Origin: Thiorhodococcus fuscus
GTDB taxonomy: Bacteria > Pseudomonadota > Gammaproteobacteria > Chromatiales > Chromatiaceae
DNA: 64,000 nt
NCBI RefSeq assembly: GCF_042682685.1
Contig: NZ_JBHUHX010000009.1
Location: forward strand, 55,805 to 119,804
Direction of reading: 5' to 3'
Shown: positions 11,378-30,979 of the stretch, in pieces
Layout of the letters: each line of letters begins with the position of its first letter
How positions within the stretch are numbered: the first letter of the stretch is position 1
Program-made: the position numbers and the translations under genes
The notes under the pieces: generated by a model
What the model was told of the DNA's origin: nothing
What the model saw: the letters and a program-made list of their open reading frames with translations, nothing else
Databases searched by the model: none

Positions 11378-11380
11378 CCT

Positions 11381-12010: not shown

Positions 12011-12059
12011 GGCACGCCGGACGGACGGGGCATCGCGCCGCGTCCGCGAAAAACCTGAT

Positions 12060-12095: not shown

Positions 12096-12216
12096 GAACG
12101 ATTCATGGAGGAACCGACCGAAACGAAGCACGACGCGTCGCGACCGCATGATGCGCCGGAACAGGCCACTCGACTCGGCGGGTAATGACGAAGGACAGAC
12201 GAGAGGAGCAGACAGC

Positions 12217-13158: not shown

Positions 13159-13201
13159 GCGCATACCGGAGCGCCTCCCCATCCGTCCAGCGGTTGAGGA
13201 C

Positions 13202-13240
13202 CTACCCCTTCACCGTCAAGACCTGCTTCCTTATGTGCAT
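13202..13240 (-). other. rtcB: Detached 3'-terminal fragment of rtcB (..MHIRKQVLTVKG*), split from the gene body by the inserted element
   Basis: The minus-strand translation ends RKQVLTVKG-stop. This is the canonical RtcB C-terminus that is missing from the rtcB body at 29.8 kb. Confidence 0.55.
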
Positions 13241-13281
13241 AATGGACCCCACTTCATCCAGCAATCCAAGTGGTGTCCTAA

Positions 13282-14832
13282 GTGCCGACCAAGACAGCAA
13301 GCGGCAGCCCTAAAGCCTTCTCATACCTTCGCTTCTCCACTCCTGAACAAGAGCGCGGCGACTCCTTCCGCCGTCAGACATCCCTAGCCCAAGCCTGGTG
13401 CATCCGTCGCGGGATCGACTTAGACGAGTCCAGCTACCAGGACTTGGGTGTCTCTGCCTACAGAGGAGCCAATGCCGAGACAGGCAAGCTCGGAGAGTTC
13501 ATGGACGCAGTGAAGGAGGGACTGATCCCTCGGGGGTCTTATCTGCTGATCGAGTCCTTGGACCGTCTGTCGCGCATGACTCCACGGCGAGCCCTTCGAG
13601 TGCTTACCGACATCTGCGATGAGGGAATCGTCGTGGTCACACTGTCAGACAACAGGGAATACACCTCAGAGACACTGGATGCTGATCCTCTGTCGTTCAT
13701 GGTGGCATTCCTGGTGACCATGAGAGCCAACGAGGAGTCGGCAGCCAAGGCTAGAAGGATCAAGGCCGTATGGGACAACAAGCGCAAGCAGGCACTGGAG
13801 CAAGGTAAGGCGCTGACCAGTGTGACGCCTGGATGGCTGCAGTTGGTAGATGGTCAGTACCGGCTGATCCCTGAGAGAGCGGCTGTGGTCAAGCAGATCT
13901 TCGCCTGGCTGGCTGAAGGCAGAGGCTTGGATCAGATCGTCAGGATGCTGAACACCCAAGAAATCCCCACCTTCGGGAAGTCCGAATACTGGAGCAAGGG
14001 TTACATCGCCAAGCTGAGAGACAACCCGGCAGTGGTTGGAACGCTGATCCCTCACGTTACGAGCTATGACAAAGGCAAACGGATCAGGACGCCTCAAGAT
14101 CCTGTCCCTGGCTATTTCCCGGCAGCCGTAGACCAAGACACCTTCAACACAGTGGCAGCAAGAGCGGCGACCAGACAGCCGAAGGTCAACCACGGAAGGT
14201 CTGTCTCATTCCTTCTGGCCAGCTTGGCGAAGTGTCCCGTCTGTGGTTCGAGCATGACACGGACCCAGAAAGGCAAAGGCATGGGACCAGGAGACTCAAG
14301 GCTTGTATGCACCAAGGGCAAGGCCGGCGCTGGGTGTTCTTATCGGTCTGTGGTGGTCCAGCGAACCGAAGATGCCTTGAGACAGCATGCTTCCTTCATC
14401 GTTGGGACTGCTCCATCAGGAGATGCCTTGGTCGATTCCGAGCTGACGGACGTTGAAGTCAAACTCACTGGTATCGAAGAAGTCATGGGCCACATCATGG
14501 AGGCAATCGAGCATGGAGGAGGCAGGGAAAGTGGATCGATGCCGCTGCTGTCCAGCAGGCTGGCAGCCTTGGAGGAGGAAAGAAGGGCATTGGAGCAGAC
14601 GAGACGAGAGCTGATGGAGAAGCTCTCGACAATGGACAGCACCATGGTCGACAAGAGACTTGCACGACTGGAGGATGTCTTGCTGTCTGGAGACATCCAC
14701 GCAGGCAACACTCTACTGAGAGAGCTGTTCACGAGTGTGGTGGTCGACTATGAGCGCGGGGAACTGAGGCTGCAGTGGATACATGGAGGAGAGACTTGCA
14801 TCCCCTACGCAATGCCGCTAAAGAGCGCATAG
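13282..14832 (+). CDS. Large serine recombinase (resolvase-type catalytic domain + recombinase domain + zinc ribbon)
   Basis: 516 aa. N-terminal YLRFSTPEQ..GDSFRRQ catalytic region, then LIESLDRLSR, and a later CPVCGS..C zinc ribbon. GTG start. An 11-bp imperfect inverted repeat (ggaccccactt/aagtggtgtcc) lies at 13244-13278, just upstream. Confidence 0.85.
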   Translation: MPTKTASGSPKAFSYLRFSTPEQERGDSFRRQTSLAQAWCIRRGIDLDESSYQDLGVSAYRGANAETGKLGEFMDAVKEGLIPRGSYLLIESLDRLSRMTPRRALRVLTDICDEGIVVVTLSDNREYTSETLDADPLSFMVAFLVTMRANEESAAKARRIKAVWDNKRKQALEQGKALTSVTPGWLQLVDGQYRLIPERAAVVKQIFAWLAEGRGLDQIVRMLNTQEIPTFGKSEYWSKGYIAKLRDNPAVVGTLIPHVTSYDKGKRIRTPQDPVPGYFPAAVDQDTFNTVAARAATRQPKVNHGRSVSFLLASLAKCPVCGSSMTRTQKGKGMGPGDSRLVCTKGKAGAGCSYRSVVVQRTEDALRQHASFIVGTAPSGDALVDSELTDVEVKLTGIEEVMGHIMEAIEHGGGRESGSMPLLSSRLAALEEERRALEQTRRELMEKLSTMDSTMVDKRLARLEDVLLSGDIHAGNTLLRELFTSVVVDYERGELRLQWIHGGETCIPYAMPLKSA

Positions 14833-14939
14833 GAAACCCTCAAAACGATCCTAGGCAAGACTGGTAGGCAGGCATCGCTGGTAGGCAGGCATCGTGCGAG
14901 GCATGCTCGCCCCAGTGAGGCTTAGGCGGCGTCTGAGAT

Positions 14940-15300
14940 GGCAGACAATTACTGCCACCCAGTAGAGGGAGGGAGCCGCCCGCTTCCCCTAGGTGATCCA
15001 GTCTCCAGAACACCCCGACCGACATCTACGCGAGAACCTCTGTAAGCCCTTGTTATGAAAGGCTCTCGCAAAAACCGGGTGATTAACACTCCCTAATAGA
15101 CCAGAGAAGCCGTCCGCTTCACCCAGGCGAGCCGCCCCCAGAACGCTCCAACCGACGCCCGCCTAGCCACGCTTGCAAGATTCTGTTCTAAAAATACTTT
15201 TCTTGAAACGGGTGATTAGGGCGGCCCTGTAGAGTAGAGAGCCGTCCTCTTCACTCAGGCGATCCAGCCTTCCAGCCATCCACCACGATGCCTCGTCCCT
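14940..15300. repeat. Three tandem degenerate ~110-120 bp direct repeats
   Basis: The unit ..cgggtgatta..tagag(g/t)agagagccg(c/t)ccgcttcac(c/t)caggcga(t/g)cc..cagaac..ccgac recurs three times between the integrase and the next gene. Confidence 0.5.
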
Positions 15301-15346
15301 GACGGACAACCATCACAGCCAACAACCTCAAGGAGGAGCCGACCCC

Positions 15347-15583
15347 ATGTCCACCCGCCGCCATGTGCAGGTCTCTCGGCACATCGAGCTGAGGACCGAG
15401 CTGGCATTCCTGCGTCTCCGCTTCTGCAAGCCCGTCTCGAAACTGGAGCTGTCCAGGATGACGGACGTTGAGCCTCAGACCATCCGCCGGATCGTGCGAA
15501 CGATGGAAGCCATCGAACAGGCTGGACAAGAACTGCCCGAGACCTGGAAGGACGCGAAAGCGTTGGCCAAGGTGCTCGGCTGA
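15347..15583 (+). CDS. Small HTH DNA-binding protein (possible excisionase/regulator)
   Basis: 78 aa. SKLELSRMTDVEPQTIRRIV looks like a helix-turn-helix. First gene after the recombinase. Confidence 0.4.
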   Translation: MSTRRHVQVSRHIELRTELAFLRLRFCKPVSKLELSRMTDVEPQTIRRIVRTMEAIEQAGQELPETWKDAKALAKVLG

Positions 15584-16276
15584 GAACGACGACACATCAC
15601 CCCGATAGGTCAGCCCAGGACGCTCTTGGTAGAGATTGAGAGTACCCGAGGCTGACTTGCCATTCAGCTGCTAATTCCCAATGCAGAAATTTGTGCATTG
15701 GAGACTGCCGGCAAGCGGGGCGGCAAACCCCGTAAGGATTACACCCTCAGCCGCAACCAGCAATCCAACAGGTTTTTCGCAGCTCAGAGAAAAACCCCTA
15801 GAGCGCACAGGCAAGGATGGTCGACTGGCTCAAGCTGGAGTCAGCCAAGGAATACCTGGCAGCCATGCGTCGTGCGCTCAAATGTGAGAAATCCTCACTT
15901 TTGACAACCACTCGGGGCAACGCTGGCCAGGGTCTCTTTTTGCTGGCTCGGCTAATGTCTATCGCCGATGTCGGTCCTTGGTTCCGATCACTCGGGACGC
16001 TTGTGCTACAGGCTCTTGAAGCTATCACCCTCTCAGCGGTGCCGTCCTTTCCCGGTCTAGCGACTCCTCGCACCTGCACTGCAGGAATGATCCATCCGGC
16101 AACACGCCAACTCTGATCATTCGATCAACAGCTCACACCAGGGCTACTCAGTCACACCAATCCATTCAGGTCAGCATCTACAGGCTTGCCAGCTAGCTTC
16201 CTTTTGTTCAGGGGAGTTGGTGGGCTAGCTGGATGGTGCTTGCCTGTGGGTGCTCACCTGAAAAGGAAACTGAACA

Positions 16277-17176
16277 ATGTCTATCACTGACAACATCAAC
16301 GAATACGAAGTCAAGAAGAACCGTAAGCGCCGCCGTGGTCCCAGCGATGGGAGAAGCCTCAAGGGAACCCACGACACAGCCACCGAGAAGCAGTACATGA
16401 TCGCAGGGTTCAGCGAGGAGTCGGCTAAGCGGATGATCAAACACCGTCACCGCTTCCCCTTCGAGCTGGACGGCACACAGCCAACGTATGACGCACGGAC
16501 GGTGTGGAGCTGGATCGGGAAGCCGCAAGGCAAATTTGCCAACTGGGTGAAGCGGGATCTCATGCCGACAACCAGTCACCTGATGTTTCAGTCACAGATT
16601 AGTGACCGAATCCTGACCCCCACAGGCAAACGAGGTGGGCAGCAGATTGACTACCTTCTGAGCCGCGATGTCGTGATGGATCTAGGCCAGCAAGCTAGAA
16701 CGCCTGAAGGGCAGGAGATCCGAGCCTACTTCCGTGACATGGAGAAGGCGGTCTACATCATGGGCTCGTTCCATCAATACCGAGTCTCTGACCTAGTGGA
16801 GCTGGACAAGACCCTGAAGCATTGGACACGCAAGACCTTCGGTTCTGCCGGTGCTAGCTGGGATGAGACGATCTTCAGTCTCGTTGCCCGTGCTGTCTCC
16901 GGCTATTCCGCTGGAGTGTGGAAGACTACATTCAATCGTCCAATCCGTGATGTCCTGAACATGAAAGACCTTGAGCGGTATGGGCGGTGCTTGGAGATGA
17001 TGATCACGCTATTGGATGCAGGGATCACCAACACCGACACGCTGTACGTCAAGGCTTCAGGCCGCTTCGGTGGAGATGTCGAGATTGGAGACTACATCAC
17101 TACAGTCGAGCAGACTGAACGCTTCCATCAAGCAACAGCCAAGAAGAAGGTCAAGGCACTGAAGGAGGTGGCGTGA
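16277..17176 (+). CDS. Phage antirepressor-like protein (ORF6N/ORF6C- or AntA-like)
   Basis: 299 aa. The central GQEIRAYFRDMEK resembles the KilA-C/ORF6C motif. Basic N-terminus. Confidence 0.4.
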   Translation: MSITDNINEYEVKKNRKRRRGPSDGRSLKGTHDTATEKQYMIAGFSEESAKRMIKHRHRFPFELDGTQPTYDARTVWSWIGKPQGKFANWVKRDLMPTTSHLMFQSQISDRILTPTGKRGGQQIDYLLSRDVVMDLGQQARTPEGQEIRAYFRDMEKAVYIMGSFHQYRVSDLVELDKTLKHWTRKTFGSAGASWDETIFSLVARAVSGYSAGVWKTTFNRPIRDVLNMKDLERYGRCLEMMITLLDAGITNTDTLYVKASGRFGGDVEIGDYITTVEQTERFHQATAKKKVKALKEVA

Positions 17177-17201
17177 CCATGACCCCCTGATAGAGGGGAC
17201 C

Positions 17202-17651
17202 ATGACGAGGGAGCGCTCTACAGACCATGAGCCCCCGGATAGGGAGACCATGGAGGCTGCCCTGGCTCCCGTCAGCCATGACCCCCCAGTCGAGGGGACC
17301 ATGGAACAACCGATCTCCGTCCCATCCGTCGAGGCACTGAGGCTCAATGCCCGTGGAACCAAGCGGTCCCTGGTCGACGCCTTTACCTGCCTGTTGAACC
17401 AGGGCATCTCCTTTCCCGAACACCTGGAGCCGTGGCACTGGGTCGAGGCTCTGGCTCCCAGGCTGAAGACCATGGCCAAGGAGCGCGGACTTCCATCCGC
17501 CCTGGAGCTGGCAAGCTTCTCGACACGCCATCGCAGCGCCTTTGCCGTCGACGAGATCGCCAGGGATTACCTGATCGACCTGAAGTCCTGGGCCAGACAC
17601 CCCAAGCGACACCATCCCCACCAACCACTGCAGGCCGTCCCTGCGTCCTGA
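17202..17651 (+). CDS. Hypothetical protein
   Basis: 149 aa ORF in the same orientation as the element's operon. No recognisable motif. Confidence 0.3.
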   Translation: MTRERSTDHEPPDRETMEAALAPVSHDPPVEGTMEQPISVPSVEALRLNARGTKRSLVDAFTCLLNQGISFPEHLEPWHWVEALAPRLKTMAKERGLPSALELASFSTRHRSAFAVDEIARDYLIDLKSWARHPKRHHPHQPLQAVPAS

Positions 17652-17665
17652 AGAGACAGAAACCC

Positions 17666-17860
17666 ATGAACGATCCAACCCATTCACCCGTCAACGGGAC
17701 CGACACACCACTCGGCTTGCCCGAGAGCTGCCCGTGGGCGGACCAGATCCTCCTCATGCTCGGTCGAATCGAAGGCAAGCTCGACGCCTTTCAGCGCCAC
17801 ATGGCCGTCATGGACCGGAAGCTGGAGAGCGTCTCGACTCAGCGCCAGCAGAAGCACTGA
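17666..17860 (+). CDS. Hypothetical small protein
   Basis: 64 aa. ATG at 17666. Confidence 0.25.
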   Translation: MNDPTHSPVNGTDTPLGLPESCPWADQILLMLGRIEGKLDAFQRHMAVMDRKLESVSTQRQQKH

Positions 17861-18001
17861 GAATGCCTCAGAGCCTCGCTGTACGTCGATCTCAGGGTCT
17901 CTTGTCCTTTCGGTATGACTCACATCACCGAGAGCGGCGGGAGGCTCAGAGAGCCGCACAGAGGGACTTAGGCAGAGACCCAGCAGAACAGGATAAACAC
18001 A

Positions 18002-18262
18002 GTGATCGAATCGACACCATACAAAGCATGTGCCACTGAGACCGGCGAGATGTCATTAGGCGGCATCCGAGTTGTCGTACCAGTGGCTGACCGATTAACG
18101 GACCCAGAGTACATCGTATTTCTTGAGACCCTCACCGTCGTGAGTGACGGACGGAAGATGGTGCGTCAAGTCCGTGAGACTGAGTACGGCGCACAGAATA
18201 TATTCATCGACGCAATGAACACGCTCGTACTGACATACCCAGAAGACGTGGTGACAGTATGA
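18002..18262 (+). CDS. Hypothetical protein
   Basis: 86 aa. Its stop overlaps the next gene's start (ATGA coupling). Confidence 0.3.
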   Translation: MIESTPYKACATETGEMSLGGIRVVVPVADRLTDPEYIVFLETLTVVSDGRKMVRQVRETEYGAQNIFIDAMNTLVLTYPEDVVTV

Positions 18263-18666
18263 GCAGGCAAGTCCACAGGATCGAACATCAAACCATCAGA
18301 GAGCTGGTAAGCGACGCTACAGAGTATAAGCGCCTGCTCAAGGTGTACCGTGCCTTCCGTGCGAAGAAACCAGAAATGCTGGAGACATGGCCCGCTCTAG
18401 TGGATTCGGTCGCCATGACTGTTCAGAGCGAAAAGCTGACAACGGAAGCAGTGGAGAAGTACATACACCACCTATGGCAAGGTGGACGTGCGCCTATCCT
18501 TCCTCACCTGGCCAAGGTATACGGGCTGAAGCGCGGCCAAGCCACACGCCTTGACAGCCTCAGATTCCATGTGGATCTGATGAAGCTGGAAAAGTGGACT
18601 GTCGACTACGAGAAGCTGCTCGAATACGACAGAGCCCTAGAGTACGTCCTGCCCGAATATGAGTAA
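18259..18666 (+). CDS. Hypothetical protein
   Basis: 135 aa. Translationally coupled to the preceding ORF. Confidence 0.35.
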   Translation: MSRQVHRIEHQTIRELVSDATEYKRLLKVYRAFRAKKPEMLETWPALVDSVAMTVQSEKLTTEAVEKYIHHLWQGGRAPILPHLAKVYGLKRGQATRLDSLRFHVDLMKLEKWTVDYEKLLEYDRALEYVLPEYE

Positions 18667-18827
18667 CACTGCCTGACCCCACAGGCCGCACTGCGCGGAT
18701 CCCCTCCGCGACCTCTGAATACTGTGCGTAATCAGCACAGAAACCCAATCGACACAACCCTTTCTCGTTGAGTCCTTCCGCATTGCCACAGGCACTGGCT
18801 TTCTCTTGAGCCGGTTGTGGGTGCTAT

Positions 18828-20846
18828 GTGGATGGGACTCTGCGGGAGGATTCAACAAGAATGAATCAAGAGACAATGACCCTCTACAAGCAACAACCTC
18901 ACGTCCTCCCTGAAGTCTTCGCCGCCACCATGCGCGAGCACTGGGAGACCTCCCTCGGCAACGTCCCAAGCCCAGCCCTGCAAGCCCTGTGGCGAACCAT
19001 GGCCAAGGCATTCAATGCGTCCATCAATGACGAGGAGCATCGCTGGACTGTGCTCCAACCGCCCACGGGCACCGGCAAGACTCAAGGTGCCTGCCTATTC
19101 TCGGCCATGACAGCCAAGAAGAACGAAGGTCTCTTCATGGACGAGCGTGTCGGAATCCTGATCGTGACCCGGCTCATCAGTCAGGCCAACGAGATCGTGG
19201 AAACCGTCAACCGCATGGCCGGCTTCGAGTGTGCCGCAGCCAAGCATTCCGAGTCCGACCTCACGGCGGAAGAGGCTCAAGCCTTCGATGTTCTGGTGGT
19301 CACTCATGCCGCCTATACCAACGCCCTGGAAGGGCTCTGCAAGGATGACAGGAGCCGCTGGGATGCCCTGGTCCGCTGGGAGCATGGCTACCGGAAGCTG
19401 ACCATCGTGGATGAGGCCATCGCCAACATCGTGGAGGAGTACAACGTCAAGGCGGACGATGTCCGACTGACCCTGGCCTTCATCACCCCGGACATCCGCC
19501 ACCGCTACCCGAATGAGGTCGCTGCCGTGGAGCTGGTCAGGGATCTGCTGGAGCGGATCGCCGAGATGCACAAGGATGCCGAGGGCGACGAGGACGACAC
19601 CACCTCCAGGTTCACCGAGTCCAAGGTGCTCTGGACACCCGAGCGCAAGGCTCAACTCCTCGGCTCTGATGCCTCCATCTCCCTCGACAACCTCCGTGCG
19701 GCCATGAAGGAGGTCCGCTATGACCTGATCGGCAGCAGACGGGAGTCCAAGGACGACCGCAAGCGTCAGGCTGAACGGTTCGACAAGATCCTCCGCAGCA
19801 TCGAGGCGATCATGAACAGGTTCATGTGGTACGCGAAGAAGGGCTTAGAGTACAGCTTCAACGGATCCGAGCTACTGATCCCGGATGACCTCCCGTCCCC
19901 CGTGGTCCTGGATGCGACGGCTCGACAGAACTTCCTCTGGACCCTCCTGGAGGACCGAGCGGTCATCCTTCCCGTGCCACCCAAGACTCGGAACTACCGC
20001 AACGTCACGCTCCATGTGGCTCGGGCGAGAGGGACCGGGAAGACGGCGATGAAGGAGAAGGGCAAGGATCGGATTCCCCGACTCATCCATCAGCTCCAGC
20101 AAGATCTGGATCCAGGCAGGAAGGTCTTCGTCGCTCTGCACAAGGACATCGAGCACCATGCCGTCAAGTACGACCCTGGCTTCTCTGAGTGGTCTGTCGG
20201 TCACTGGGGAGCCATCGACGGTCGGAACGATTGGATGACCTATGACACTGCCGTCATCTTCGGCCTTCCATACCGGGACACTATCTGGGCGACCAACGCC
20301 TTCTTCGCCACCCAAGGTGTCCAGAGCAACGAGTGGCTGAAGAACCCCGAGTGGAAGGGCTACAAGGATGTCCGGGAGGAGATGCAGATCAGACAGGTCT
20401 GTGTGTCCGTGGTCCAGGCCGTCAACCGAGTCCGCTGCCGGAAGGTGACCGATGCGGATGGAAGCTGCGATCAGTCGGATGTCTTCATCATCCTGCCGAC
20501 CGGGAAGATGGGAGAGCAGATGCTGAAGGCTCTGGTGGAGGAGATGCCAGGGATCCAGGTCAAGGGTTGGGACTTCGAGTTGGATGGAGCCAAGCCAAGG
20601 CAACGGATCAAGAAGGGCTCAAGTCATGAGGCGCTCCTGACTCTGATGCAGAACGCGCTGCCTGGAGATTACTCGGTGAGCCACTTGAACACCGAGCTGG
20701 GCCTAGCGCCCAAGGGGCTTGAGAAGATCAAGGCTGCCCTTCGCGATCCAAGCCACCCTCTGACCCGAGCCCTGCTGGAGGTCGGGGTCAAGGTTCAACA
20801 CTCTGGTGCCAAGCGAGGAGCAAGGACGACGCTCATCAAGACGTGA
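18828..20846 (+). CDS. SF2 (DEAD/DEAH-like) helicase-family protein, phage/island-encoded
   Basis: 672 aa (alternative start at 18861, MNQETM). Walker A LQPPTGTGKTQ, DEAH-like box LTIVDEA, a late QAVNRVRCRK resembling helicase motif VI (QxxGRxxR). Confidence 0.55.
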   Translation: MDGTLREDSTRMNQETMTLYKQQPHVLPEVFAATMREHWETSLGNVPSPALQALWRTMAKAFNASINDEEHRWTVLQPPTGTGKTQGACLFSAMTAKKNEGLFMDERVGILIVTRLISQANEIVETVNRMAGFECAAAKHSESDLTAEEAQAFDVLVVTHAAYTNALEGLCKDDRSRWDALVRWEHGYRKLTIVDEAIANIVEEYNVKADDVRLTLAFITPDIRHRYPNEVAAVELVRDLLERIAEMHKDAEGDEDDTTSRFTESKVLWTPERKAQLLGSDASISLDNLRAAMKEVRYDLIGSRRESKDDRKRQAERFDKILRSIEAIMNRFMWYAKKGLEYSFNGSELLIPDDLPSPVVLDATARQNFLWTLLEDRAVILPVPPKTRNYRNVTLHVARARGTGKTAMKEKGKDRIPRLIHQLQQDLDPGRKVFVALHKDIEHHAVKYDPGFSEWSVGHWGAIDGRNDWMTYDTAVIFGLPYRDTIWATNAFFATQGVQSNEWLKNPEWKGYKDVREEMQIRQVCVSVVQAVNRVRCRKVTDADGSCDQSDVFIILPTGKMGEQMLKALVEEMPGIQVKGWDFELDGAKPRQRIKKGSSHEALLTLMQNALPGDYSVSHLNTELGLAPKGLEKIKAALRDPSHPLTRALLEVGVKVQHSGAKRGARTTLIKT

Positions 20847-22707: not shown

Positions 22708-23640
22708 ATCGTCGGTTTTCGGACCTTGTGGCGTAAATTTAATAAACTAATCATAGGCTTACAATGAATCCCTCGGTGAAAGCGAGGCAGCAAATCACCT
22801 CAATGAGGACGAAGCACAAAACCTGCAAATCGCCGGTTCTGGAAATTGTGATGTGAATTTGATAAGTGAATCAGGGCTTTACGGGGCGATCCTTGGTAGC
22901 CACAAGGCGGAAGCCAACCGGGTTCAAGCGCTGTTCAGCAAGGATTTTCACGGCAACTCTCGCGAATCACGAGGGTCGCGGTTGCGTTCGGATACCAAGC
23001 TGAATCCCCGAGGCTGACATCTACCGTCTGGTGATGAAGTCCCGCTTCCCGTCCGCTACGCGGTTTTAGGAGTGGGGTGTCGATCCGTTCGACCCCCTTG
23101 GCGAGCGGGAAAGGGGCCGCATCCGTTGTGACCCCTGGCGCGTGGATAGGGTGGACGGCAAATTTCCTCCCCCTCTGAAAAGACCAAGCGGATAACCTCG
23201 ATTATGGTTCGCCTGACTGGAAGGGGGTTAATCCGATTAACACCCCTGGGGGAAATCAAGAGGTTACGGTGCTCACCGAGCAGGGTCTCTACTTCTTCGT
23301 CGCCCGCTCCGACAAGCCCTGCGCTCGGCCCTTCCAGAAGTGGAAGGGTACGAAACCGATTCGTACCCCTGGTGGAGCCCAGAAGGTGACCAAATCGTTG
23401 GTTCATGGACCCAAGGGTGGAAGGGGGCGAGCCTCGATTCCTGGCGTTGTATGTTGCACTGGTGCCGAGCCACTCCGATGCCCACAACATGACCACCAGG
23501 CTGGACACGGACGAAGTACAAAACCTGCAAATCCCAGGTTTGCTCACTCGCGGCGTGAATTTGATAAGCGAATCATGGCTTTACGAAGCGATCCTTGGTA
23601 GCCACAAGGCGGAAGCCAAGCGGTTCAAGCGCTGGGTCAA
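22690..23640. repeat. Array of degenerate direct repeats made of Bro-N antirepressor gene fragments
   Basis: Three copies of a 70-125 bp unit beginning gaag(c/t)acaaaacct(g/a)(c/t)aaatc.. at about 22690, 22811 and 23512. Copies 2 and 3 are ~90% identical over ~125 bp. Additional Bro-N-like peptides occur at 22990-23050 (ADIYRLVMKSRFPSA) and 23204-23350 (LTEQGLYFFVARSDKPCARPFQKW). Confidence 0.55.
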
Positions 23641-23995
23641 GCGTGAAGTCCTGCCCACCATCCGCAAGACCGGCAGCTATTCGCTCCAGCCTCAACCCCA
23701 GATCCCACAGTCCTTGCCCGAGGCACTCCGTCTCGCCGCCACGCTGGCCGAAGAGAAAGAGCGCCTCGCCCAGGAGAACGCGCAGCTCACCCACATCACG
23801 TCCGTCCAGAACGACATGCTTGAAGCCACTGCCCCCAAGGCTGCCCTTCTCGATCAAGCGTTCGAGGATGACCGCTGGGTTAACGTGACCGACTTCGCCA
23901 GCCGGCTGGAAGGCGTCAACCGCAACAGCCTGACTTCAGTGATCCGGGTTATAGGAGGCGCGGTTGCAGTTAGCTATCAAGCCACTCGTTTGTAA
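23405..23995 (+). pseudogene. Bro-N C-terminal half fused to a KilA-C-like tail (antirepressor remnant)
   Basis: ESWLYEAILGSHKAEAKRFKRWVKREVLPTIRKTGSYSLQ is the distal half of a Bro-N domain without its N-terminal half. Preceded by repeat debris. Confidence 0.45.
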
Positions 23996-25037
23996 CTTCA
24001 CGGTACTTGCCGATGAAGTCCTCACGACCACAAAGCCGAGGTTCTGTCAGCAAATGGTAGGCTCTATTTATGGCCTGCCCGATCTCTTCCCGAGTCAACT
24101 CTGCACAGAACACCGAGAAGAAATCAGATAGATCGACAACAGCAAGATCGAAGCTCAGGTGCTCGATGAAATCTATTAGTTTGGACGCGGGATATAGATC
24201 GCTATCACCCCGGACATCGGAAGCGAATATTACGTATTTTGGCAGATTGCCCCGAACCGCTTTCTTTTGAAAATCACTAAGTCGGTTCTTCCAATCATCC
24301 CTTACCGTTACCTCGAATGCCGCTATTAGCAAGTCCTCTCTGTATTCCTCAATATCTCCAGTTGCCCCATCGAATTTGTCAGATGCATGCGGGTGATGTG
24401 TAATAACTCGATGCCCATATCGCTTTCGATGGACTTCAATGAAGGCGGCAACCAAGAACTGCTGGATGTGACCCTCTGAGGGTACTTTCATCAGCCTTTC
24501 GCAGAGACGAAGACTTCTCGCATACGACAAATAACCCCTTGGTAAAACTGGCAGTGCTTGCGGAATCACCTTGGATTGTTCAAGTCTCCATACAATGTGA
24601 TTGACAAGCGCTTCCCTTTCTGCTGGCTGCAGGCATTCAAGGTTGCTCACGAATGATGCAAAGCGTATATCAGCCGAGAGATCAAACTGGCGCACCGCTC
24701 CCTTCCAGCCTAAATTTTCACCAAATGCCGTTATGCTGTTGTGAAGTGTGACATGCCGTTGAGTCAGCTCCCCTGCGAGTCTCTTATCACCATACTTACC
24801 TCGCGCCCCTACTGGGACGGTCTTAAAATCCCACTCTTCATCAATCAACGAATATGCTGCCAGGAAAGCACAAGCAAGTCTCACGCTTCCGCGCTGCGAT
24901 TCTATATGGCTATCAAATATCGCTTTGACATTTCTAGGCGCAGGCTCTCCAAGAACCTCTCCTTCTGATAGGCGATCAAGCCTATCAAGAATAATATCTA
25001 CAGCCTTCTCTACACTTTCATTTCGTCTTCGTTTCAT
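23970..25037 (-). CDS. Putative Type II restriction endonuclease (partner of the adjacent C5-MTase)
   Basis: 355 aa, markedly low-GC ORF. 4-bp overlap with the methyltransferase gene. No motif assignable by eye. Confidence 0.5.
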   Translation of the reverse strand: MKRRRNESVEKAVDIILDRLDRLSEGEVLGEPAPRNVKAIFDSHIESQRGSVRLACAFLAAYSLIDEEWDFKTVPVGARGKYGDKRLAGELTQRHVTLHNSITAFGENLGWKGAVRQFDLSADIRFASFVSNLECLQPAEREALVNHIVWRLEQSKVIPQALPVLPRGYLSYARSLRLCERLMKVPSEGHIQQFLVAAFIEVHRKRYGHRVITHHPHASDKFDGATGDIEEYREDLLIAAFEVTVRDDWKNRLSDFQKKAVRGNLPKYVIFASDVRGDSDLYPASKLIDFIEHLSFDLAVVDLSDFFSVFCAELTREEIGQAINRAYHLLTEPRLCGREDFIGKYREVTNEWLDS

Positions 25038-26083
25038 AGCGCCAATTCCATTTGATTGAAATCCTCATTTGCAGGCACAAGACCCGAAGGAGATTGAACT
25101 CCATTGGCCTGAGAATACAAAGCCGCGCCTATGGCAAATGCCAGATCAGGTGGAACTGCGTCTCCCACTTGCTTGTACTGAGACGAGCGTTTGCCAGAGA
25201 AAGCCATCTCGCTAGGAAAGGTCTGGATTATGGCGCACTCTTCCACGCTAAGGCGACGAGCACCAGGCACTATACCTTGCCACGGCTCTCCACCAGCGCG
25301 GAGATGAGAGTGGTACTTCGGGGCAATATTTTCCGTATCTATCCAGTGAGTCTTGTATCCGCCCGATGATGCCAGGATTGTGTGGCAGGGTCCGTTGGGA
25401 TCGATAGGGCGTCCACCTCCATTATAGACATGCCCAGCGTATGGACTCGGGCGTAAGTCTGGATACTTAGCGAAACGCACAGGGCAGTTCGGTGCTTCAC
25501 CGATAGGATCCGGGCCAAGCCTACTAGCCGCACTTACGTGCGGTAGCGATGTGTTTTCGCCATGGGTTGGCGTAGGTAGAAGTAAGCGATGTGAGCGGGA
25601 GCCGAGTATAAATAGTCGCCTTCTCTTCTGCGGCACGCCATAATCCGCAGAGTTAATTACAGACCAGTTAATGTGATATCCACATGCAGCCAGCCTTGAA
25701 AGGACTGACTCAAAATACGGGCGAGCCTTCTTGAGTGTAAGACCAGGAACATTTTCCATGAGGAAATACGCTGGCCGAACTTCGTTGAGACATCGGATGA
25801 ACTCTGGAATCATATCCCTTTCGTCCGCATGCCCTTTGCGCAACCCACCGATTGAAAAAGGTTGGCACGGAGGTCCGCCAACGACAATGTCAACTCGGCC
25901 TCGAAATGGCGAGAAGTCAATCTTGCGAACATCTTCGTTGAAGTGGTTTGAGCTGCCATGGTGCAAGGCGTATGTATCCATAGCATCTCGGTTGATCTCG
26001 ACATTTGCCACAATATCGAAACCAGCCCTCTGGATGCCTAAAGAAAGACCGCCTGGCCCTGAGAATAGGTCGATGCCTTTCAC
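25034..26083 (-). CDS. DNA (cytosine-5)-methyltransferase
   Basis: 349 aa. Motif I DLFSGPGG, motif IV GGPPCQPFS, motif VI ENV, motif VIII QKRRRLF. Confidence 0.9.
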   Translation of the reverse strand: MKGIDLFSGPGGLSLGIQRAGFDIVANVEINRDAMDTYALHHGSSNHFNEDVRKIDFSPFRGRVDIVVGGPPCQPFSIGGLRKGHADERDMIPEFIRCLNEVRPAYFLMENVPGLTLKKARPYFESVLSRLAACGYHINWSVINSADYGVPQKRRRLFILGSRSHRLLLPTPTHGENTSLPHVSAASRLGPDPIGEAPNCPVRFAKYPDLRPSPYAGHVYNGGGRPIDPNGPCHTILASSGGYKTHWIDTENIAPKYHSHLRAGGEPWQGIVPGARRLSVEECAIIQTFPSEMAFSGKRSSQYKQVGDAVPPDLAFAIGAALYSQANGVQSPSGLVPANEDFNQMELAL

Positions 26084-26496
26084 TGATATTGGTATCGCTT
26101 CTGGTCGGATAAGCCCCTGCTCTTGCTATCGGATGTGGGAGATCTTTCCGACAACGAGGCAGACAGGGCTAGTAGGGAACTTGCAGCAAAGAGGCTAGGC
26201 AAACCTAGCTTGCTTGACGTAGAGTAAAAGCCGTCCGCCGAGGTGCTGACAACACCCCGACGACAAAGCAAGGCCGCCACTAACGGCTTGCACCGGCTCG
26301 GACATGATACAGCCCCAGGGGTTGGTCTGTCCGCTCAAGGCCCAACTACGCTGATTCCTAGCCAAGTTGCGCCTGGAGTTCCCGTTCCTTCCTCCTGGGA
26401 GAGCCTCTGCCCCTGACGCTGCTGCCTCACCGACAGCGTCGGACTGCCTGTGTGAGCGGTCGATTTCTCAAATCCAACTCTTGGAGAGATCGACCC

Positions 26497-26793
26497 ATGA
26501 AATCCCATGAACAGCTCCTCGCCCCTGGCTCCACCGAGAAGACCGTCGCCACTGCCGACCTGAACATCCGCAGCACGATCAGTCTGGATGTTTACGCCGG
26601 AACCAGATCCTGGATGTGGAAGGTCTACCTCAACAAGGAGGAGCTGACGAGCCAGAGCGGCTACTCCACCCACGCCTTGGCCAGCCAGGCCGGATTGGCG
26701 GAATGGGACCGGATCGTCTCGGCGGTCACCGGCTCGAACATCAAGGCCATCGAAGCCAATGTCGCTGCCGCTGAGAAGGAGCCGTCCGCATGA
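26497..26793 (+). CDS. Hypothetical protein upstream of the replication ATPase
   Basis: 98 aa. ATG at 26497. Its stop overlaps the downstream start (ATGA). Confidence 0.35.
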   Translation: MKSHEQLLAPGSTEKTVATADLNIRSTISLDVYAGTRSWMWKVYLNKEELTSQSGYSTHALASQAGLAEWDRIVSAVTGSNIKAIEANVAAAEKEPSA

Positions 26794-28406
26794 ACCCAAG
26801 CCCCCTCCTTGCTGAGGGGGTGTCCAACACCTCCAGGCACACTTCCGTATCCAACGCTGTTGGAGCCTCAGCATCTAGCGCTGTTGAAGCCTCTGCGCCC
26901 AGCACAGCCGAAGCCCCCGACACTCCGCTGCCGGACTTCACCCCAGTCGCCACCATCCGCCGACCCGATGGTCAAGAGACCCAAGTCGTCCGTGACCGCT
27001 GGGGCAGCCATCTGCTGCACTCTCCCGACAACCCCGGATGGGTCCGGGTCCATCGAGACGGAGCGGGCAACTGGATCGAGCGCGAGACCGGGATCGTCCA
27101 TGCCACCGATGGCAGCGTGATCCACCCCAAAGACATCTTCGGCGCATCATCCGAGGGATTCATCGACGTGAACACCAAGGCAGCCTCGACCATCAAGCCC
27201 GACCCCGTGCGTTGGCTTTGGCCCGGATGGCTCGCGGCCGGGAAGGTCCACCTCCTGGCTGGAGCACCAGGCACAGGGAAGACCACCGTCAGCATGGCTC
27301 TGGCGGCGACGGTCTCGCTTGGAGGCAGATGGCCCGATGGAACCGAAGCCCTCCAAGGTGATGTCCTGATCTGGTCCGGGGAGGACGACATCAAGGACAC
27401 CCTGGTCCCGAGGCTCATGGCTGTGGGGGCTGATCTCAATCGCGTCCACTTCATCACGACCACCAACACCGAGGATGGCCTGAGAGCCTTCGATCCAGCC
27501 GTCGACATCGACCTCCTGGCCGACAAGATGGCCTGGATGGATCCTTGCCCTTCCTTGCTGATCGTCGATCCCATCGTGGCAGCGGTCTCTGGAGACAGTC
27601 ACCGCAACGCCGAGGTCCGGCGAGCCTTGCAGCCCTTGGTTGACCTGGCCGCTTCCCGTCACTGCGCTGTTCTGGGGATCTCCCACTTCAGCAAGGGCAG
27701 CTCGGGACGAGATCCGATTGACCGGGTGACCGGATCGCTGGCCTTCGGTGCCCTGGCGCGGGTGGTCATGGCAACCGCTCGGCTGCCGGACGACCACCCC
27801 AGTGGAGTGAGGCGGATCCTGGCCCGAGCCAAGAGCAACATCGGCGAGGATGGTCAGGGGTTCGGATACGACCTGGAGCTGGAGGAACCGGTCGAGGGAA
27901 TCGAGGCGACCCGAGTCCTCTGGGGCGAGATGCTCGAAGGCAGCGCCAGGGAACTCCTGAGCATGGCCGAGCCGGTCCCTGATGGCGAGGGTGAGAGCAA
28001 CGCCGATGTCGAGTCCTTCGTTCGCGGGCTCCTGGCCGATGGTCCAGTCTCCGCCAAGCAGATGAAGGCCGATGCCGATGGAGCCGGCTACTCCTGGGAT
28101 CGGGTGAAGCGAGCCGCCAGCCGGATCGGAGTGGAGCGGAGGAAGGAGGACTTCAGCAAGGGCTGGGTATGGTCGCTCTCCACGGACCATGACGGTCGAT
28201 CAAGAACGGTCGCTCTGGAGGAGCTGATCCGGGATGCCCTGGCACAGGGAGAACGCACGGCCCAGGAGATGAAGGTCATGATCGAGGAAGCCGGCTATTC
28301 CTGGGATCAAGGCAAGCGAACCGCCGCCAAGCTGGGCATCGAGCGCCAAAAGTCCGGTTACCAGGGACCGTGGACCTGGACGCTGGGAGAGGCTGCCGCC
28401 GCCTAG
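26790..28406 (+). CDS. RepA-like AAA_25/RecA-fold replication ATPase of integrative elements, with two tandem ~57-aa C-terminal repeats
   Basis: 538 aa. WLAAGKVHLLAGAPGTGKTTVSMALAATVSLGGRWPDG (Walker A in AAA_25 context), LLIVDPI (Walker B). The C-terminus has a duplicated module ..GAGYSWDRVKRAASRIGVERRK.. / ..EAGYSWDQGKRTAAKLGIERQK.. Confidence 0.75.
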   Translation: MNPSPLLAEGVSNTSRHTSVSNAVGASASSAVEASAPSTAEAPDTPLPDFTPVATIRRPDGQETQVVRDRWGSHLLHSPDNPGWVRVHRDGAGNWIERETGIVHATDGSVIHPKDIFGASSEGFIDVNTKAASTIKPDPVRWLWPGWLAAGKVHLLAGAPGTGKTTVSMALAATVSLGGRWPDGTEALQGDVLIWSGEDDIKDTLVPRLMAVGADLNRVHFITTTNTEDGLRAFDPAVDIDLLADKMAWMDPCPSLLIVDPIVAAVSGDSHRNAEVRRALQPLVDLAASRHCAVLGISHFSKGSSGRDPIDRVTGSLAFGALARVVMATARLPDDHPSGVRRILARAKSNIGEDGQGFGYDLELEEPVEGIEATRVLWGEMLEGSARELLSMAEPVPDGEGESNADVESFVRGLLADGPVSAKQMKADADGAGYSWDRVKRAASRIGVERRKEDFSKGWVWSLSTDHDGRSRTVALEELIRDALAQGERTAQEMKVMIEEAGYSWDQGKRTAAKLGIERQKSGYQGPWTWTLGEAAAA

Positions 28407-28419
28407 CGGTTAGCCGCCA

Positions 28420-28610
28420 AAGGGAGCGGAAGGGGGCGAAGAAGTGGACTCAAGTCTACGTGCTCCCTTCCGCGCTCTTTGCTCCCTTCTGCACTCTTTG
28501 GCTGCATTCTTCCGCATTCTTTGGCGCGACCACGGCTCAAAGGGAGCAGAAGAGTGCAAGGGAGCAGAAGGGAGCACTGGAATTTGAGTGCATCCTTCGC
28601 CTTCTTCGGT
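28420..28610. repeat. Iteron-like direct repeats inside a long imperfect palindrome (candidate origin/regulatory region downstream of repA)
   Basis: Direct repeats gcactctttgg / gcattctttgg / gcattcttcc, flanked by inverted arms gtgctcccttc..tgctcccttctgcact and agtgcaagggagcagaagggagcac. Confidence 0.35.
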
Positions 28611-29040
28611 GCTCCCTTCGCGTCGATTCATGCGCAGCCGAGGGACTGAGGCGCGTCCGCCGACTGTCCGCGCCGGTGAGAGTGAAGACCTTGGATGTTT
28701 TGCCATAAAAATCTGAAGTGGCACATCTAGAGCGCGGCTTCTGAATTCCCCCCCGTCCCGCCCCTGCATTCCGCCATTCGCCTTCTTTCGTCCCGCCTCT
28801 GGGGTATGCCCCAGTCTCCACCGCAAGCCAGCCGCCAAGCAGACAACCAAGCCTCTCCGGTCCACCGCTCCGGCCATCCACCGAGCCCTCCAAGCCTTGC
28901 CCTACCGGTGAAGCCCCGAGGCTCTGGCACCTTAGCGCTTCCGTCTTCGATGGAGCCTGATACATCGGCACTCTGTCGCCGCTCTTTCCGTTGCCGCAGC
29001 ACCAGCTCATCCGACTGCCAAGGGACGTGATGTGTCCCTT

Positions 29041-29190
29041 CGATGTCGTGTCCAGTGGGTACACCTTCTTGGACACTTCGGCCATGCCCATGGATCAGCG
29101 GGTTATCGTGTCCAACAAAGTTGATATTGCATTATCTTGACACTTGCAAAGATGAGCTTTAGGCTTTTTTGGACACTTCGAGACACGCCC
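29041..29190. promoter_or_regulatory. Candidate res-like site / resolvase operator
   Basis: Several TGTCCA/TGGACA half-site dyads (cgtgtccagtggg, ttggacacttcgg, cgtgtccaacaaa, ttgacacttgcaa, ttggacacttcga) and an AT-rich core directly upstream of the resolvase start. Confidence 0.4.
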
Positions 29191-29211
29191 ACATGAGAGG
29201 AGCGCACAGCC

Positions 29212-29769
29212 ATGTCAGGACAGCAGGTCGGATATATCCGGGTCTCTTCGGTCGATCAGAACAGCGACAGACAGTTGGTCGATGTCGAGCTGGACAAGAC
29301 CTTCACCGAGAAGGCATCGGGCAAGAACACCGCAGGTCGGCCAATCCTGGCTCAGTGCCTGGCATATGTGCGCGAAGGCGACACCATCCACGTCCACAGC
29401 ATCGACAGGCTGGCCCGGAACCTCGCCGAGCTGCAGTCCCTGGTGGACGATCTGGTGAGCTGTGGCGTGTCGGTCCAGTTCCACAAGGAGAACCTGACCT
29501 TCCAGGCTGGAGCGGGTGATCCGATGCAGCGGCTGATGCTGCAAATGATGGGAGCCTTCGCCGAGTTCGAGCGGTCGATGATCCGAGAGCGCCAGCGGGA
29601 AGGGATCGCGGAAGCGAAGCGCCAGGGCAAGCAGATCGGGAGAGCCAGGAAGCTGGACGATGATCAGATTGCAGCGGTCAGGGAACGCATCGCCAAGGGT
29701 GAGAACAAGAAGGCGATTGCTGCCGATCTGGGGATCTCAAGGCAGACGCTGTACAGCGCCTTGGGCTGA
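29212..29769 (+). CDS. Small serine recombinase (resolvase/invertase family) with C-terminal HTH
   Basis: 185 aa. GYIRVSSVDQNSDRQ catalytic serine region, DRLARN, C-terminal HTH ISRQTLYSAL. Confidence 0.9.
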   Translation: MSGQQVGYIRVSSVDQNSDRQLVDVELDKTFTEKASGKNTAGRPILAQCLAYVREGDTIHVHSIDRLARNLAELQSLVDDLVSCGVSVQFHKENLTFQAGAGDPMQRLMLQMMGAFAEFERSMIRERQREGIAEAKRQGKQIGRARKLDDDQIAAVRERIAKGENKKAIAADLGISRQTLYSALG

Positions 29770-30979
29770 ACACCCGAGAGACACTACGACCTAGATCAAT
29801 TATTTTGGGGTCTATTGTTAATGATGTGTTCAGCGTATGCACCACCTCGACCAGATCGCTCTGGTTCGCCATGACGGCGTCGATGTCCTTATAGGCGGCG
29901 GGGATCTCGTCGATGACCCCCTTGTCCTTGCGGCACTCGACGCCCTGGGTCTGGACCTCCAGATCCTTGCGGGTGAAGCGCCGGGTCGCCTCGCCACGAC
30001 TCATACGCCGACCCGCTCCGTGCGAACAGGAACAGAATGACATGGGGTTCCCCAGTCCGCGCACGATGTAGGACTTGGCGCCCATGCTCCCCGGGATGAT
30101 GCCCAGATCGCCCTCGCGCGCCCGGATGGCACCCTTGCGGGTCAGATAGACCTCCTTGCCGAAATGCTGCTCGCGCGTCACGTAGTTGTGGTGACAGTTG
30201 ATCGCCTCCGAGGTCGCCTCGAACGGCGGCAGCTGTCCGCGCAGCGCCTCGATGATGAGCCGCATCATCTGACGACGGTTCTCCATCGCATAGTCCTGGG
30301 CCCAGCCGACCGCCTCGACATAGTCGTCGAAGTGCTGGCTGCCCTCGGGCAGATAGGCCAGGTTGTGATCGGGAAGCTGGATCTTCCAGCGCTCCATCTC
30401 GCGCTTAGCCAGCTCGATGAAATGCATCCCGATCCGATTGCCGATCCCGCGCGATCCCGAGTGGAGCATGATCCAGACCTGCTGGGACTCGTCGAGACAG
30501 AGTTCGATGAAATGGTTTCCGCCACCCAGCGAGCCGAGCTGACTCTTCCAGCGCGCATTGACCTTGGGATGCTTGGCCAGGATCGGCTCGAGACCGGGCG
30601 CCACCCGGGCGAGCCCCTCCTCGCACCAGTGCTCCTGACCGTGTCCGTCCATCCCGACCGGCACCCTGGCCTCGATCGCCGAACGCACCCGGGCCAGCGA
30701 GTCCGGCAGCTGGTCCGCGCGCAGCGAGAGCCGCAGGGCGTTCATGCCGCAACCGATGTCGACGCCCACGGCTGCCGGGATGATGGCCCCGACTGTCGGG
30801 ATCACCGAGCCGATGGTCGCGCCCATCCCCCAGTGCACGTCCGGCATCGCCGCCACGTGCGAATGGATGAAGGGCAGATGGGAGACGTTTTCGAGCTGCT
30901 TCATGGCGTTCTCGGCCACGTCGTCCGTATAGATCTTGACCGGAACCCGGCCCTTGCTGATGACTCGCTTGATAGGCAT
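29678..30979 (-). CDS. rtcB: RNA-splicing ligase RtcB, native C-terminus replaced by the element junction
   Basis: Hallmark motifs GGGNHFIE, HSGSRG, CHHNY, SHGAGR. The native frame runs 30979 down to ~29834 (..DLVEVVHTL) and then reads 50 unrelated codons antisense to the resolvase gene instead of the canonical ..KQVLTVKG end. Confidence 0.85.
   Translation of the reverse strand: MPIKRVISKGRVPVKIYTDDVAENAMKQLENVSHLPFIHSHVAAMPDVHWGMGATIGSVIPTVGAIIPAAVGVDIGCGMNALRLSLRADQLPDSLARVRSAIEARVPVGMDGHGQEHWCEEGLARVAPGLEPILAKHPKVNARWKSQLGSLGGGNHFIELCLDESQQVWIMLHSGSRGIGNRIGMHFIELAKREMERWKIQLPDHNLAYLPEGSQHFDDYVEAVGWAQDYAMENRRQMMRLIIEALRGQLPPFEATSEAINCHHNYVTREQHFGKEVYLTRKGAIRAREGDLGIIPGSMGAKSYIVRGLGNPMSFCSCSHGAGRRMSRGEATRRFTRKDLEVQTQGVECRKDKGVIDEIPAAYKDIDAVMANQSDLVEVVHTLNTSLTIDPKIIDLGRSVSRVFSPRRCTASALRSPDRQQSPSCSHPWRCVP

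Follow-up and report, generated by a model that had tools for sequence, protein, structure and literature searches.

How does a mobile island come to lie inside the RNA ligase gene rtcB, a few codons before its stop, and what does this mean for the gene and for the island? The question is raised by a 64,000-nucleotide stretch of Thiorhodococcus fuscus DNA (contig NZ_JBHUHX010000009.1; this whole stretch is called the window, and positions refer to it unless a contig is named), in which some 16.6 kb of foreign sequence interrupt rtcB. Comparison with an empty site in a close relative and with the attachment sites of related elements proves, at the level of sequence, that a 16.6-kb integrative element has split rtcB within its last eight codons in such a way that the gene can be cleanly rejoined. 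That the block is a mobile island which integrated into rtcB by means of its own recombinase, is of mosaic make-up and probably leads a non-autonomous life is, taken as one account, very probable.

The body of rtcB reads normally on the minus strand through ..SDLVEVVHTL, its last codon, Leu383, lying at 29833-29831; it shares 93.3% nucleotide identity with positions 5997-7158 of L177, a 75-kb metagenome contig from a close relative of T. fuscus whose RtcB is 96% identical in amino acid sequence to that of the window, and 96% amino acid identity with the protein P0121. Beyond Leu383 the frame runs on into the element, overlaps the 3' end of a resolvase gene on the opposite strand and ends with a stop codon at 29680-29678. 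The missing end of the gene lies at the far side of the block, where the letters AAG CAG GTC TTG ACG GTG AAG GGG TAG (13228-13202) encode KQVLTVKG and the stop codon. Both junctions have only GAA in common (29831-29829 and 13229-13227), and joining there restores an RtcB of 391 residues that ends in VVHTLKQVLTVKG and a stop codon, the last 13 residues being those of the closest orthologues (L001, P0121-P0125), which terminate exactly in HTLKQVLTVKG. RtcB loci were fetched from reference genomes, and all 80 match the joined query up to its final residue; the gene ends were translated for 23 of these loci and inspected together with 10 further orthologue proteins, and the native terminus [KR]Q[VI]x[CT][VI]KG with an immediate stop was found in 33 of the 33. 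No truncated match occurred among the 200 RtcB hits retrieved. Moreover, L177 provides the empty site: its positions 5997-7158 correspond to window 30990-29829 and its positions 7156-17183 to window 13229-3194, both with about 93% identity, and the two alignments overlap in L177 by exactly 3 nucleotides, the GAA. Since both flanks are colinear with this 3-nucleotide overlap, the window can be described as an L177-type locus plus an insert of 16,602 bp (about 13229-29830). The flanking genes are also shared, in the order Band_7/SPFH, rtcB, convergent lactate dehydrogenase, SPOR, ArgRS and PriA.

A first-pass annotation, made from the letters of the window, had already proposed that an element of about 16.6 kb splits rtcB near its stop codon, and the empty site in L177 together with family-type attachment arms at both ends bears this out. 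The same applies to its expectations that an in silico join would give an intact RtcB matching the orthologues to the last residue and that a relative would carry an uninterrupted rtcB, while the 33 native ..KG termini contradict the long native extension it had allowed for. Its borders had to be moved slightly: the end of the rtcB body is as it described, though not at 29834, and of the tail ..RKQVLTVKG that it placed at 13240 to 13202 only KQVLTVKG and the stop codon (13228 to 13202) belong to the host, the arginine and the residues before it being element sequence. The comparison of the two junctions for a crossover dinucleotide that it suggested gives AA. A shared TGCA (29841-29838 and 13239-13236) had been tried as the core; joining there gave ..HIRKQ.. 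(..VVHIRKQVLTVKG), and this candidate was dropped since the orthologue tails and L177 put the core at GAA, 7 nucleotides further on. TGCA is a half-site motif found at equal distance in the B and P arms.

Which enzyme made these junctions is indicated by the att arms themselves. A position matrix was built from the recombinase-proximal att arms of 57 different relatives of the recombinase encoded at the left end of the island, none of them from the window, and run over both strands (about 128,000 positions). The best score in the window, 20.1 bits, falls at 29805-29828 on the plus strand followed by TT, which is the right junction, and the second, 12.5 bits, at 13252-13229 on the minus strand followed by AA, which is the left junction. 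The two top matches are thus the inward ends of the insert, facing the same AA/TT dinucleotide with 16-nucleotide spacing. The crossover dinucleotide is accordingly read from the sequence as the AA with which the Lys384 codon (AAG) begins. AG is ruled out as it is missing from attR, and GA is disfavoured by the 16-nucleotide arm spacing and by both matrices used in this work (the second is described below). The rebuilt attP has the form TGGGGTC-N16-AA-N16-GACCCCA, a 48-bp imperfect palindrome in which the 7-bp inverted repeat TGGGGTC/GACCCCA is separated by 16+2+16 nucleotides. Such short sites with imperfect dyad symmetry and no long identity between attP and attB are those of large serine recombinases, and P arms of the family type, GGGTC plus 16-17 nucleotides, are present at both ends of the element.

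The recombinase gene begins 53 nucleotides inside the left crossover, as in its relatives, and the protein combines a resolvase domain (PF00239, 9.5e-16) with PF07508 (8.3e-15) and PF13408 (4.1e-07), matches the PHROG 95 integrases (2e-71), and contains the catalytic YLRFST motif with the nucleophile serine, the full domain set of a large serine recombinase. It is 100% identical to the T. fuscus protein P0001 at NCBI, and the next relative in the protein collection is only 49% identical. DNA was fetched around 84 loci encoding relatives with 38-49% identity (4 by look-up and 80 from metagenomes). At 72 of them a fragment of comM/yifB, encoding a Mg-chelatase-like AAA+ protein, abuts the recombinase gene or lies near it, comM being split in either orientation at the conserved site between GGHxLL and MxGPPG; rtcB was a neighbour at none of the 84. 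Islands inserted in comM of which both gene halves are visible measure 2.6-10.3 kb. In a neighbour-joining tree, which is star-like and weakly resolved, the window recombinase forms one long branch among the comM-inserted ones, with a mean distance to the others of 0.58, the same as among the others (0.58), and its nearest neighbours (L091, L087, L088) abut comM sequence. These neighbourhoods show the recombinase to be, as judged from sequence, one lineage of a large and old proteobacterial clade that normally integrates in the middle of comM/yifB. In T. fuscus the comM site was not the target; the integration is at rtcB codon 384. A small resolvase-like gene follows the recombinase gene in 19 related loci, and the idea of a cargo common to the comM islands was rejected, as only recombinase and resolvase match. 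Some comM loci, L143, L111 and L131 among them, hold tiny islands of about 2.6-4.8 kb between the comM halves, with little beyond the recombinase gene, and the comM insertions in the two orientations go with complementary central dinucleotides (CT/TT versus AG/AA). In the window, a perfect 17-nucleotide tandem duplication (CTGGTAGGCAGGCATCG twice, 14861-14894) lies 29 nucleotides past the recombinase stop codon. That yifB is among the new targets of serine-integrase elements proposed for regulated gene integrity has been described (PMC7192596), and the phage WO recombinase sr1WO integrates in the Mg-chelatase gene of Wolbachia (PMC9203015). No report of rtcB as an attachment site was found in the literature searched, nor in those parts of the text and the TIGER supplementary tables of PMC7192596 that were available.

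What does the insertion do to RtcB? The fusion protein has 433 residues, KQVLTVKG being replaced by NTSLTIDP plus 42 further residues. A set of 32 orthologues, 70-95% identical, shows no variation at Q385, K390 and G391 and more than 90% conservation at K384 and V389. In the AlphaFold model of an intact orthologue, residues 377-390 form one terminal β-strand, with a mean predicted local distance difference test score of about 91 for residues 381-390, so the eight lost residues make up half of a confidently predicted terminal strand. The model of the fusion keeps a strand at 377-389, including 384-389, with residues 393-433 disordered, although its confidence derives largely from the aligned orthologues. 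According to this model the first six foreign residues, NTSLTI, may partly mimic the lost strand; the L-T-[IV] match lies within what chance would give from the similarity of the arms. Loss of RtcB ligase activity appears likely, though less than certain in view of the partial look-alike of the lost strand that the end of the element encodes. No protein identical to the fused reading frame is present in the collection, though the recombinase and RepA of the same NCBI record are, and the missing fusion is consistent with annotation of rtcB as a pseudogene. Sequences of solved structures gave no hits to the last 60 residues of RtcB, and the full-length alignments end before the C-terminus. An SPFH/Band_7 gene (31392-32609, minus strand) lies directly upstream of rtcB in the window and in L177, with a matching stretch upstream in L002, and the genes examined around it, in the window as in L177, include neither rtcA nor rtcR; this short-form RtcB appears to stand outside the classical rtcBA operon.

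A second contig from the metagenome that yielded L177, and with it the empty rtcB site, shows the inner part of the island in another setting. This contig, L180 (Ga0136462_100238), matches window 18717-20899, the helicase region, with 93.7% nucleotide identity and window 26213-28177, the RepA region, with 87.7%. Further homology extends to the iteron region and to portions of the antirepressor array, and the RepA of L180 is 89% identical to that of T. fuscus. The helicase match spans L180 287-2465, the homology starting abruptly at window 18717. The 286 nucleotides readable upstream of the shared backbone do not contain the left module of the T. fuscus island (14833-18716), and to the right of the backbone L180 continues with tRNA-Asn(GTT) and host genes, with neither resolvase nor att arm. 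The collection searched, which includes proteins from the sample of L180, yielded no recombinase above 49% identity. With the backbone (18717-28651) beside tRNA-Asn in a sister strain whose rtcB is intact, it follows that this part and the integration module, composed of 13229-18716 and 28652-29830, have separate histories. The backbone has moved recently, since its chromosomal location differs between hosts that have diverged by only about 7%. Where T. fuscus has a type II restriction-modification system, L180 carries an HSP70-family gene of 679 aa and an 85-aa gene (7099-9400), suggesting that the slot between antirepressors and replication module may be an exchangeable defence hotspot. The iteron-like region occurs twice in L180, in inverted orientation, at 2841-2962 after the helicase gene and at 11416-11537 after RepA. 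Of the RepA relatives with 68-71% identity, one belongs to an island with the order tyrosine integrase, AlpA, RepA and a large helicase-type cargo gene, and another adjoins type I restriction and Mrr-type nuclease genes; RepA homologues are often fused to primase domains. By analogy this context resembles the architecture of proteobacterial satellite-like and defence islands and supports a satellite-type replicative island.

The gene content of the island (Table 1) agrees with such a view. Its open reading frames (ORFs) were scanned with Pfam, PHROGs, NCBIfam and PADLOC. The left module, about 3.9 kb long, contains a 299-aa, weakly Ant-like protein (16277-17176; PHROG 5817, 1e-05) and three 28-nucleotide palindromes (17177-17303), which could be operators or other protein-binding sites. 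The three copies lie about 50 nucleotides apart at the start of a 149-aa ORF, which for this reason may not be a real gene; a fourth copy stands at 21220-21247 after the helicase gene (CCATGACCCC..GGGGACCATG; the copies are 71-100% identical). The 672-aa helicase has no PHROG match, no tblastn match in phage records and no relatives in viral contigs. The antirepressor array comprises three copies of the Bro-N core in 702-nucleotide units (direct repeats D1-D3 and D5): the first copy is frame-broken after about residue 200, the middle one has an in-frame stop and the last ends at the restriction-modification cassette. This last copy stops where the low-GC cassette starts, as though its KilAC half had given way to the cassette. 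The C5 methyltransferase of the cassette matches PF00145 with 9.9e-69. The RepA/DnaB-like helicase of 538 residues has two C-terminal repeats and matches PHROG primase/helicase families, and 12 nucleotides downstream of its gene begins the iteron-like cluster, a putative origin of replication. No capsid, tail, terminase, lysis, relaxase, coupling-protein or type IV secretion family was detected among the island ORFs scanned with Pfam, PHROGs and NCBIfam, no search for an oriT having been made. Promoter and terminator scans gave no more than shuffled sequence would and were set aside, and the element as a whole had no megablast match among phage and plasmid records.

On these points the first-pass annotation holds with some amendments. 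The gene set that it listed (antirepressors, helicase, restriction-modification, RepA-like ATPase and no structural genes) is reproduced by the Pfam, PHROG and PADLOC scans. The block is indeed of lower GC content than its flanks, 0.55-0.61 against 0.64-0.67, with the restriction-modification cassette as the lowest part of the region (0.48-0.52), except for the RepA region at about 0.64, and its genes mostly share one orientation, except for the restriction-modification pair on the opposite strand. A recombinase and a resolvase do sit at the left and right junctions, the distance of the former being 53 nucleotides instead of 40 bp and the latter gene ending 60 nucleotides from the right crossover.

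Table 1. Features of the island and of the interrupted rtcB gene (window positions)
Feature	Positions	Strand	Basis
rtcB 5' part, Met1-Leu383 (host)	29831-30979	-	Pfam RtcB E=1.4e-130
Element-encoded 50-codon extension fused to rtcB (NTSLTIDPK...CVP, including stop)	29678-29830	-	ORF translation
rtcB 3' tail, Lys384-Gly391 and TAG stop (host)	13202-13228	-	runs on into L177 7156 onward
attR: B arm (..GTGGTGCATACGCTG), crossover AA (29830-29829), P' arm (CACATCATTAACAATAGACCCCAA)	29805-29852	-	matrix match and L177 breakpoint
attL: P arm (GTGGGGTCCATTATGCACATAAGG), crossover AA (13228-13227), B' arm (GCAGGTCTTGACGGTGAAGGGG)	13205-13252	-	matrix match
Rebuilt attP: ..GCACATAAGG-AA-CACATCATTAAC..			
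Rebuilt attB: ..CATACGCTG-AA-GCAGGTCTTG..			
Large serine recombinase (integrase), 516 aa	13282-14832	+	Resolvase, Recombinase and Zn_ribbon_recom domains
Left module: small ORFs, 299-aa ORF, palindromes, 135-aa ORF (18259-18666)	14833-18716	+	no Pfam/NCBIfam matches
Superfamily 2 (SF2, DEAD-like) helicase-family protein, 672 aa, first backbone gene	18828-20846	+	PF00270 2.6e-06, just above cut-off
Bro-N/KilAC antirepressor gene array	21748-23995	+	Bro-N 9.9e-30 and partial ANT domain; PHROG 130, 5e-55 and 7e-34
Type II restriction-modification cassette: restriction endonuclease (REase) 23970-25037, C5 methyltransferase (MTase) 25034-26083	23970-26083	-	PADLOC REase_II 6.1e-99, MTase_II 5.2e-94
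Replication module: 113-aa ORF (26452-26793) and RepA/DnaB-like AAA_25 helicase (26790-28406)	26452-28406	+	AAA_25 1.4e-36
Iteron-like cluster, direct and inverted AAGGGAGCAGAAG repeats (putative origin)	28418-28651	.	repeats D9, D13, I1, I17, I19; Tandem Repeats Finder (TRF) arrays
Small serine recombinase (resolvase/invertase type), 185 aa	29212-29769	+	Resolvase 2e-36, HTH_7 1.7e-08, PHROG 125 1.4e-58

To which class of elements does the island belong? The presence of a replication module, when virion, lysis and conjugation genes were not detected, makes a satellite-like replicative island that is not autonomous the most likely answer. The earlier label of a satellite, an element like the phage-inducible chromosomal islands (PICIs) or a defective prophage is reasonable by analogy, the replication module being of the kind found in int-alpA-rep islands. 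With PICI- and P4-like satellites the island shares the size class, the integrase at one end, the lack of virion genes, a protein of the RepA/primase-helicase family followed by iterons, albeit without a primase domain, and a swappable cargo slot, here occupied by the restriction-modification system. It differs from them in that its integrase is a serine and not a tyrosine recombinase, that no alpA or Stl-type regulator was found and that no terS, ppi, cpm, sid/psu or capsid genes are among the ORFs scanned, of which about 5 kb are unassigned. Relaxase, type IV coupling protein and type IV secretion system, which would mark an integrative mobilizable or conjugative element, are likewise missing from these ORFs (oriT was not part of the search). 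The PICI-like element (PLE) of Vibrio cholerae, a phage satellite, measures about 17-18 kb, integrates by a large serine recombinase, encodes a replication initiator, has an origin of its own and is not known to carry virion genes; its targets are V. cholerae repeats and not a coding gene. The T. fuscus island resembles PLE in size, in the large serine recombinase, in having its own replication functions and in the lack of virion genes among the ORFs scanned, whereas no sequence relationship was detected and the host clade is different. In the skin element (SpoIVCA) and SPbeta (SprA) of Bacillus subtilis and the fdxN element (XisF) of Anabaena, a large serine recombinase is similarly located at the edge and the split coding gene can be rejoined in frame, and the T. 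fuscus recombinase has weak NCBIfam similarity to XisF; unlike in those systems, the split in T. fuscus is at the very C-terminus, does not recur and has no developmental context. The closest counterparts are the comM/yifB serine-integrase islands (PMC7192596) and sr1WO (PMC9203015), whose recombinases are homologous (38-49% identity) and form the clade in which that of T. fuscus is nested. They have the same attP design (GGGTC, 16-17 nucleotides, 2-nucleotide crossover, mirrored arm), a recombinase gene that abuts the junction, often with a small resolvase-like gene, and an insertion within a protein-coding gene; they differ in the target, mid-gene in comM versus the last eight codons of rtcB, and in size, 2.6-10.3 kb versus 16.6 kb with an unrelated replicative backbone.

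The account that best fits the island is as follows. As the sequence comparison shows, its own large serine recombinase joined an attP of about 50 bp to rtcB within the final eight codons, with exchange of strands at the AA within the Lys384 codon. An integration module, consisting of the recombinase and the left-hand unknown genes on one side and the resolvase on the other, encloses a backbone in which the SF2 helicase is followed by the antirepressor array, the cargo slot, the RepA-type helicase and the iteron origin. Excision would probably be carried out by the recombinase together with a directionality factor and would restore rtcB, replication would proceed from the iterons, and transfer would depend on a helper phage or another element, hence the term satellite-like.

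Several observations weigh against this account. The insertion in rtcB is a single occurrence, with no other among the 84 related recombinase loci; the score of the second att arm is barely above that of the best chance match in the window (12.3 bits), although the att-arm evidence can be considered strong despite this small margin because position, orientation and dinucleotide coincide. The scans with Pfam, PHROGs, NCBIfam and PADLOC found no repressor, AlpA, excisionase or directionality factor, primase domain, packaging or transfer function, and about 5 kb of ORFs without recognisable function could hide structural or transfer genes. No direct sign of present-day mobility was seen, and the attP junction sequence has no match in viral contigs. 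The partly pseudogenised antirepressor array suggests some decay, and the left end of the sister element is not covered, so that the lack of a related recombinase there derives from the database search. Could the block then be what is left of a prophage that decayed, lost its structural genes and can no longer move? The antirepressors of phage type, the gene copies with broken frames and the missing structural genes would fit. The sister element agrees in gene set and order, and the part of it that could be read likewise contains no structural genes, so that this layout is native and not the product of a deletion; in addition, the recombinase, both att arms, the helicases, RepA, the resolvase and the restriction-modification system are all intact, and the presence of the backbone at different chromosomal sites in hosts 7% diverged argues for recent movement, making a prophage remnant improbable. 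A chimeric contig that joins unrelated DNA within rtcB is an explanation with a negligible probability. The genome is a draft assembly (130.9-kb contig), and nothing specific beyond this points to an artefact; both junctions carry att arms of the recombinase family in the correct orientation and with the same dinucleotide, the host sequence resumes exactly 3 nucleotides back, and the recombinase gene keeps the distance from the junction seen in its relatives.

If, then, a mobile island integrated by its own recombinase, why did it enter rtcB? One explanation is regulated gene integrity, a reversible or developmental switch that keeps rtcB off until excision, as known for skin/sigK, SPbeta/spsM and phi10403S/comK. 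Such switches are usually operated by large serine recombinases, sister insertions in comM/yifB have been proposed as candidates (PMC7192596), the residues lost include the invariant Q385, K390 and G391, and the displaced tail is intact and identical to orthologue tails, so that excision would give a perfect gene. A recent insertion explains the intact tail equally well, however; the element brings a partial substitute for the strand, LT[IV], and the insertion lies at the very 3' end of the gene, the usual harmless choice of target. The published criterion asks for multiple independent events, and in place of one site used in multiple lineages by a tight integrase clade there is a single occurrence. 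Nor did excision, or any tie to the regulation of the Rtc stress response, come to light, and we consider a switch very improbable. As its clade normally integrates in comM, the recombinase would either use a new site, to which it has been retargeted, or have acted at an off-target site. A matrix of the two comM attB arms, scored against 94,728 host positions (47 kb), ranks the rtcB site in the AA register at 514, while the adjacent registers rank 68,894 and 39,788; the likeness in register is roughly GxxGxGCAxAxxCTG-NN-GxxGGTCxxGxCG. The resemblance therefore seems real but weak, and with this rank the rtcB attB was not retained as a strong comM look-alike. For a dead end, in which a comM-specific element integrated once and accidentally in a pseudo-attB in rtcB with no evolved preference, speak the overwhelming comM specificity of the clade, the position of the rtcB site within the top 0.5% of host positions and far above its neighbouring registers, the singleton nature of the insertion and the suggestion that the high rate of gene-disrupting insertions by serine integrases may reflect off-target events (PMC7192596). 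The 513 higher-scoring positions in only 47 kb of host DNA fit less well, the central dinucleotide of attP (AA in this orientation) fits rtcB and not the usual CT/TT of comM, and with the closest recombinase only 49% identical the target preference could have diverged; such an accident is possible, if on the doubtful side. Equally tentative is the proposal of a functional natural retargeting of a comM-specific lineage to a 40-bp site in rtcB, together with capture by the integration module of a satellite-like replicon that otherwise resides beside tRNA-Asn.

Two further regions of the window deserve mention. A stand-alone tRNA-Ile(GAT) gene (33137-33210, minus strand) adjoins a stretch of lower GC content (about 0.57, 33200-34500) with a gene for an XRE-type helix-turn-helix protein (33787-34425), and the matching region of L177 is flanked by tyrosine integrase fragments (L177 1704-2418), which suggests the remnant of another island. 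Between the TrkH and YibE/F genes, within another lower-GC stretch (0.58-0.61, 46-52 kb), lies a gene for a 280-aa protein with a C-terminal TIR_2 domain (2.9e-13; 47860-48702, plus strand) that may be a stand-alone defence or NADase gene.

The event described here is of an ordinary kind, one more integrative island in a coding gene, brought there by a recombinase of a clade already known, and it is notable mainly in that the relatives of this recombinase almost always insert into comM instead. An exactly mapped pair of attP and attB within a comM-targeting clade is useful for studying and engineering the specificity of large serine recombinases, and if retargeting has indeed taken place, the enzyme and its rtcB attB would form, next to their comM-specific cousins, a natural experiment on how DNA specificity changes. 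The comparison with the sister strain shows that an integration module and a replicative, defence-carrying backbone recombine as separate units within about 7% of host divergence. For T. fuscus itself, the reversible insertion could, under the retargeting proposal, also gate the RNA-repair ligase of the host, and if the RtcB fusion is inactive, the strain would be a natural RNA-repair mutant that reverts by excision of the island.

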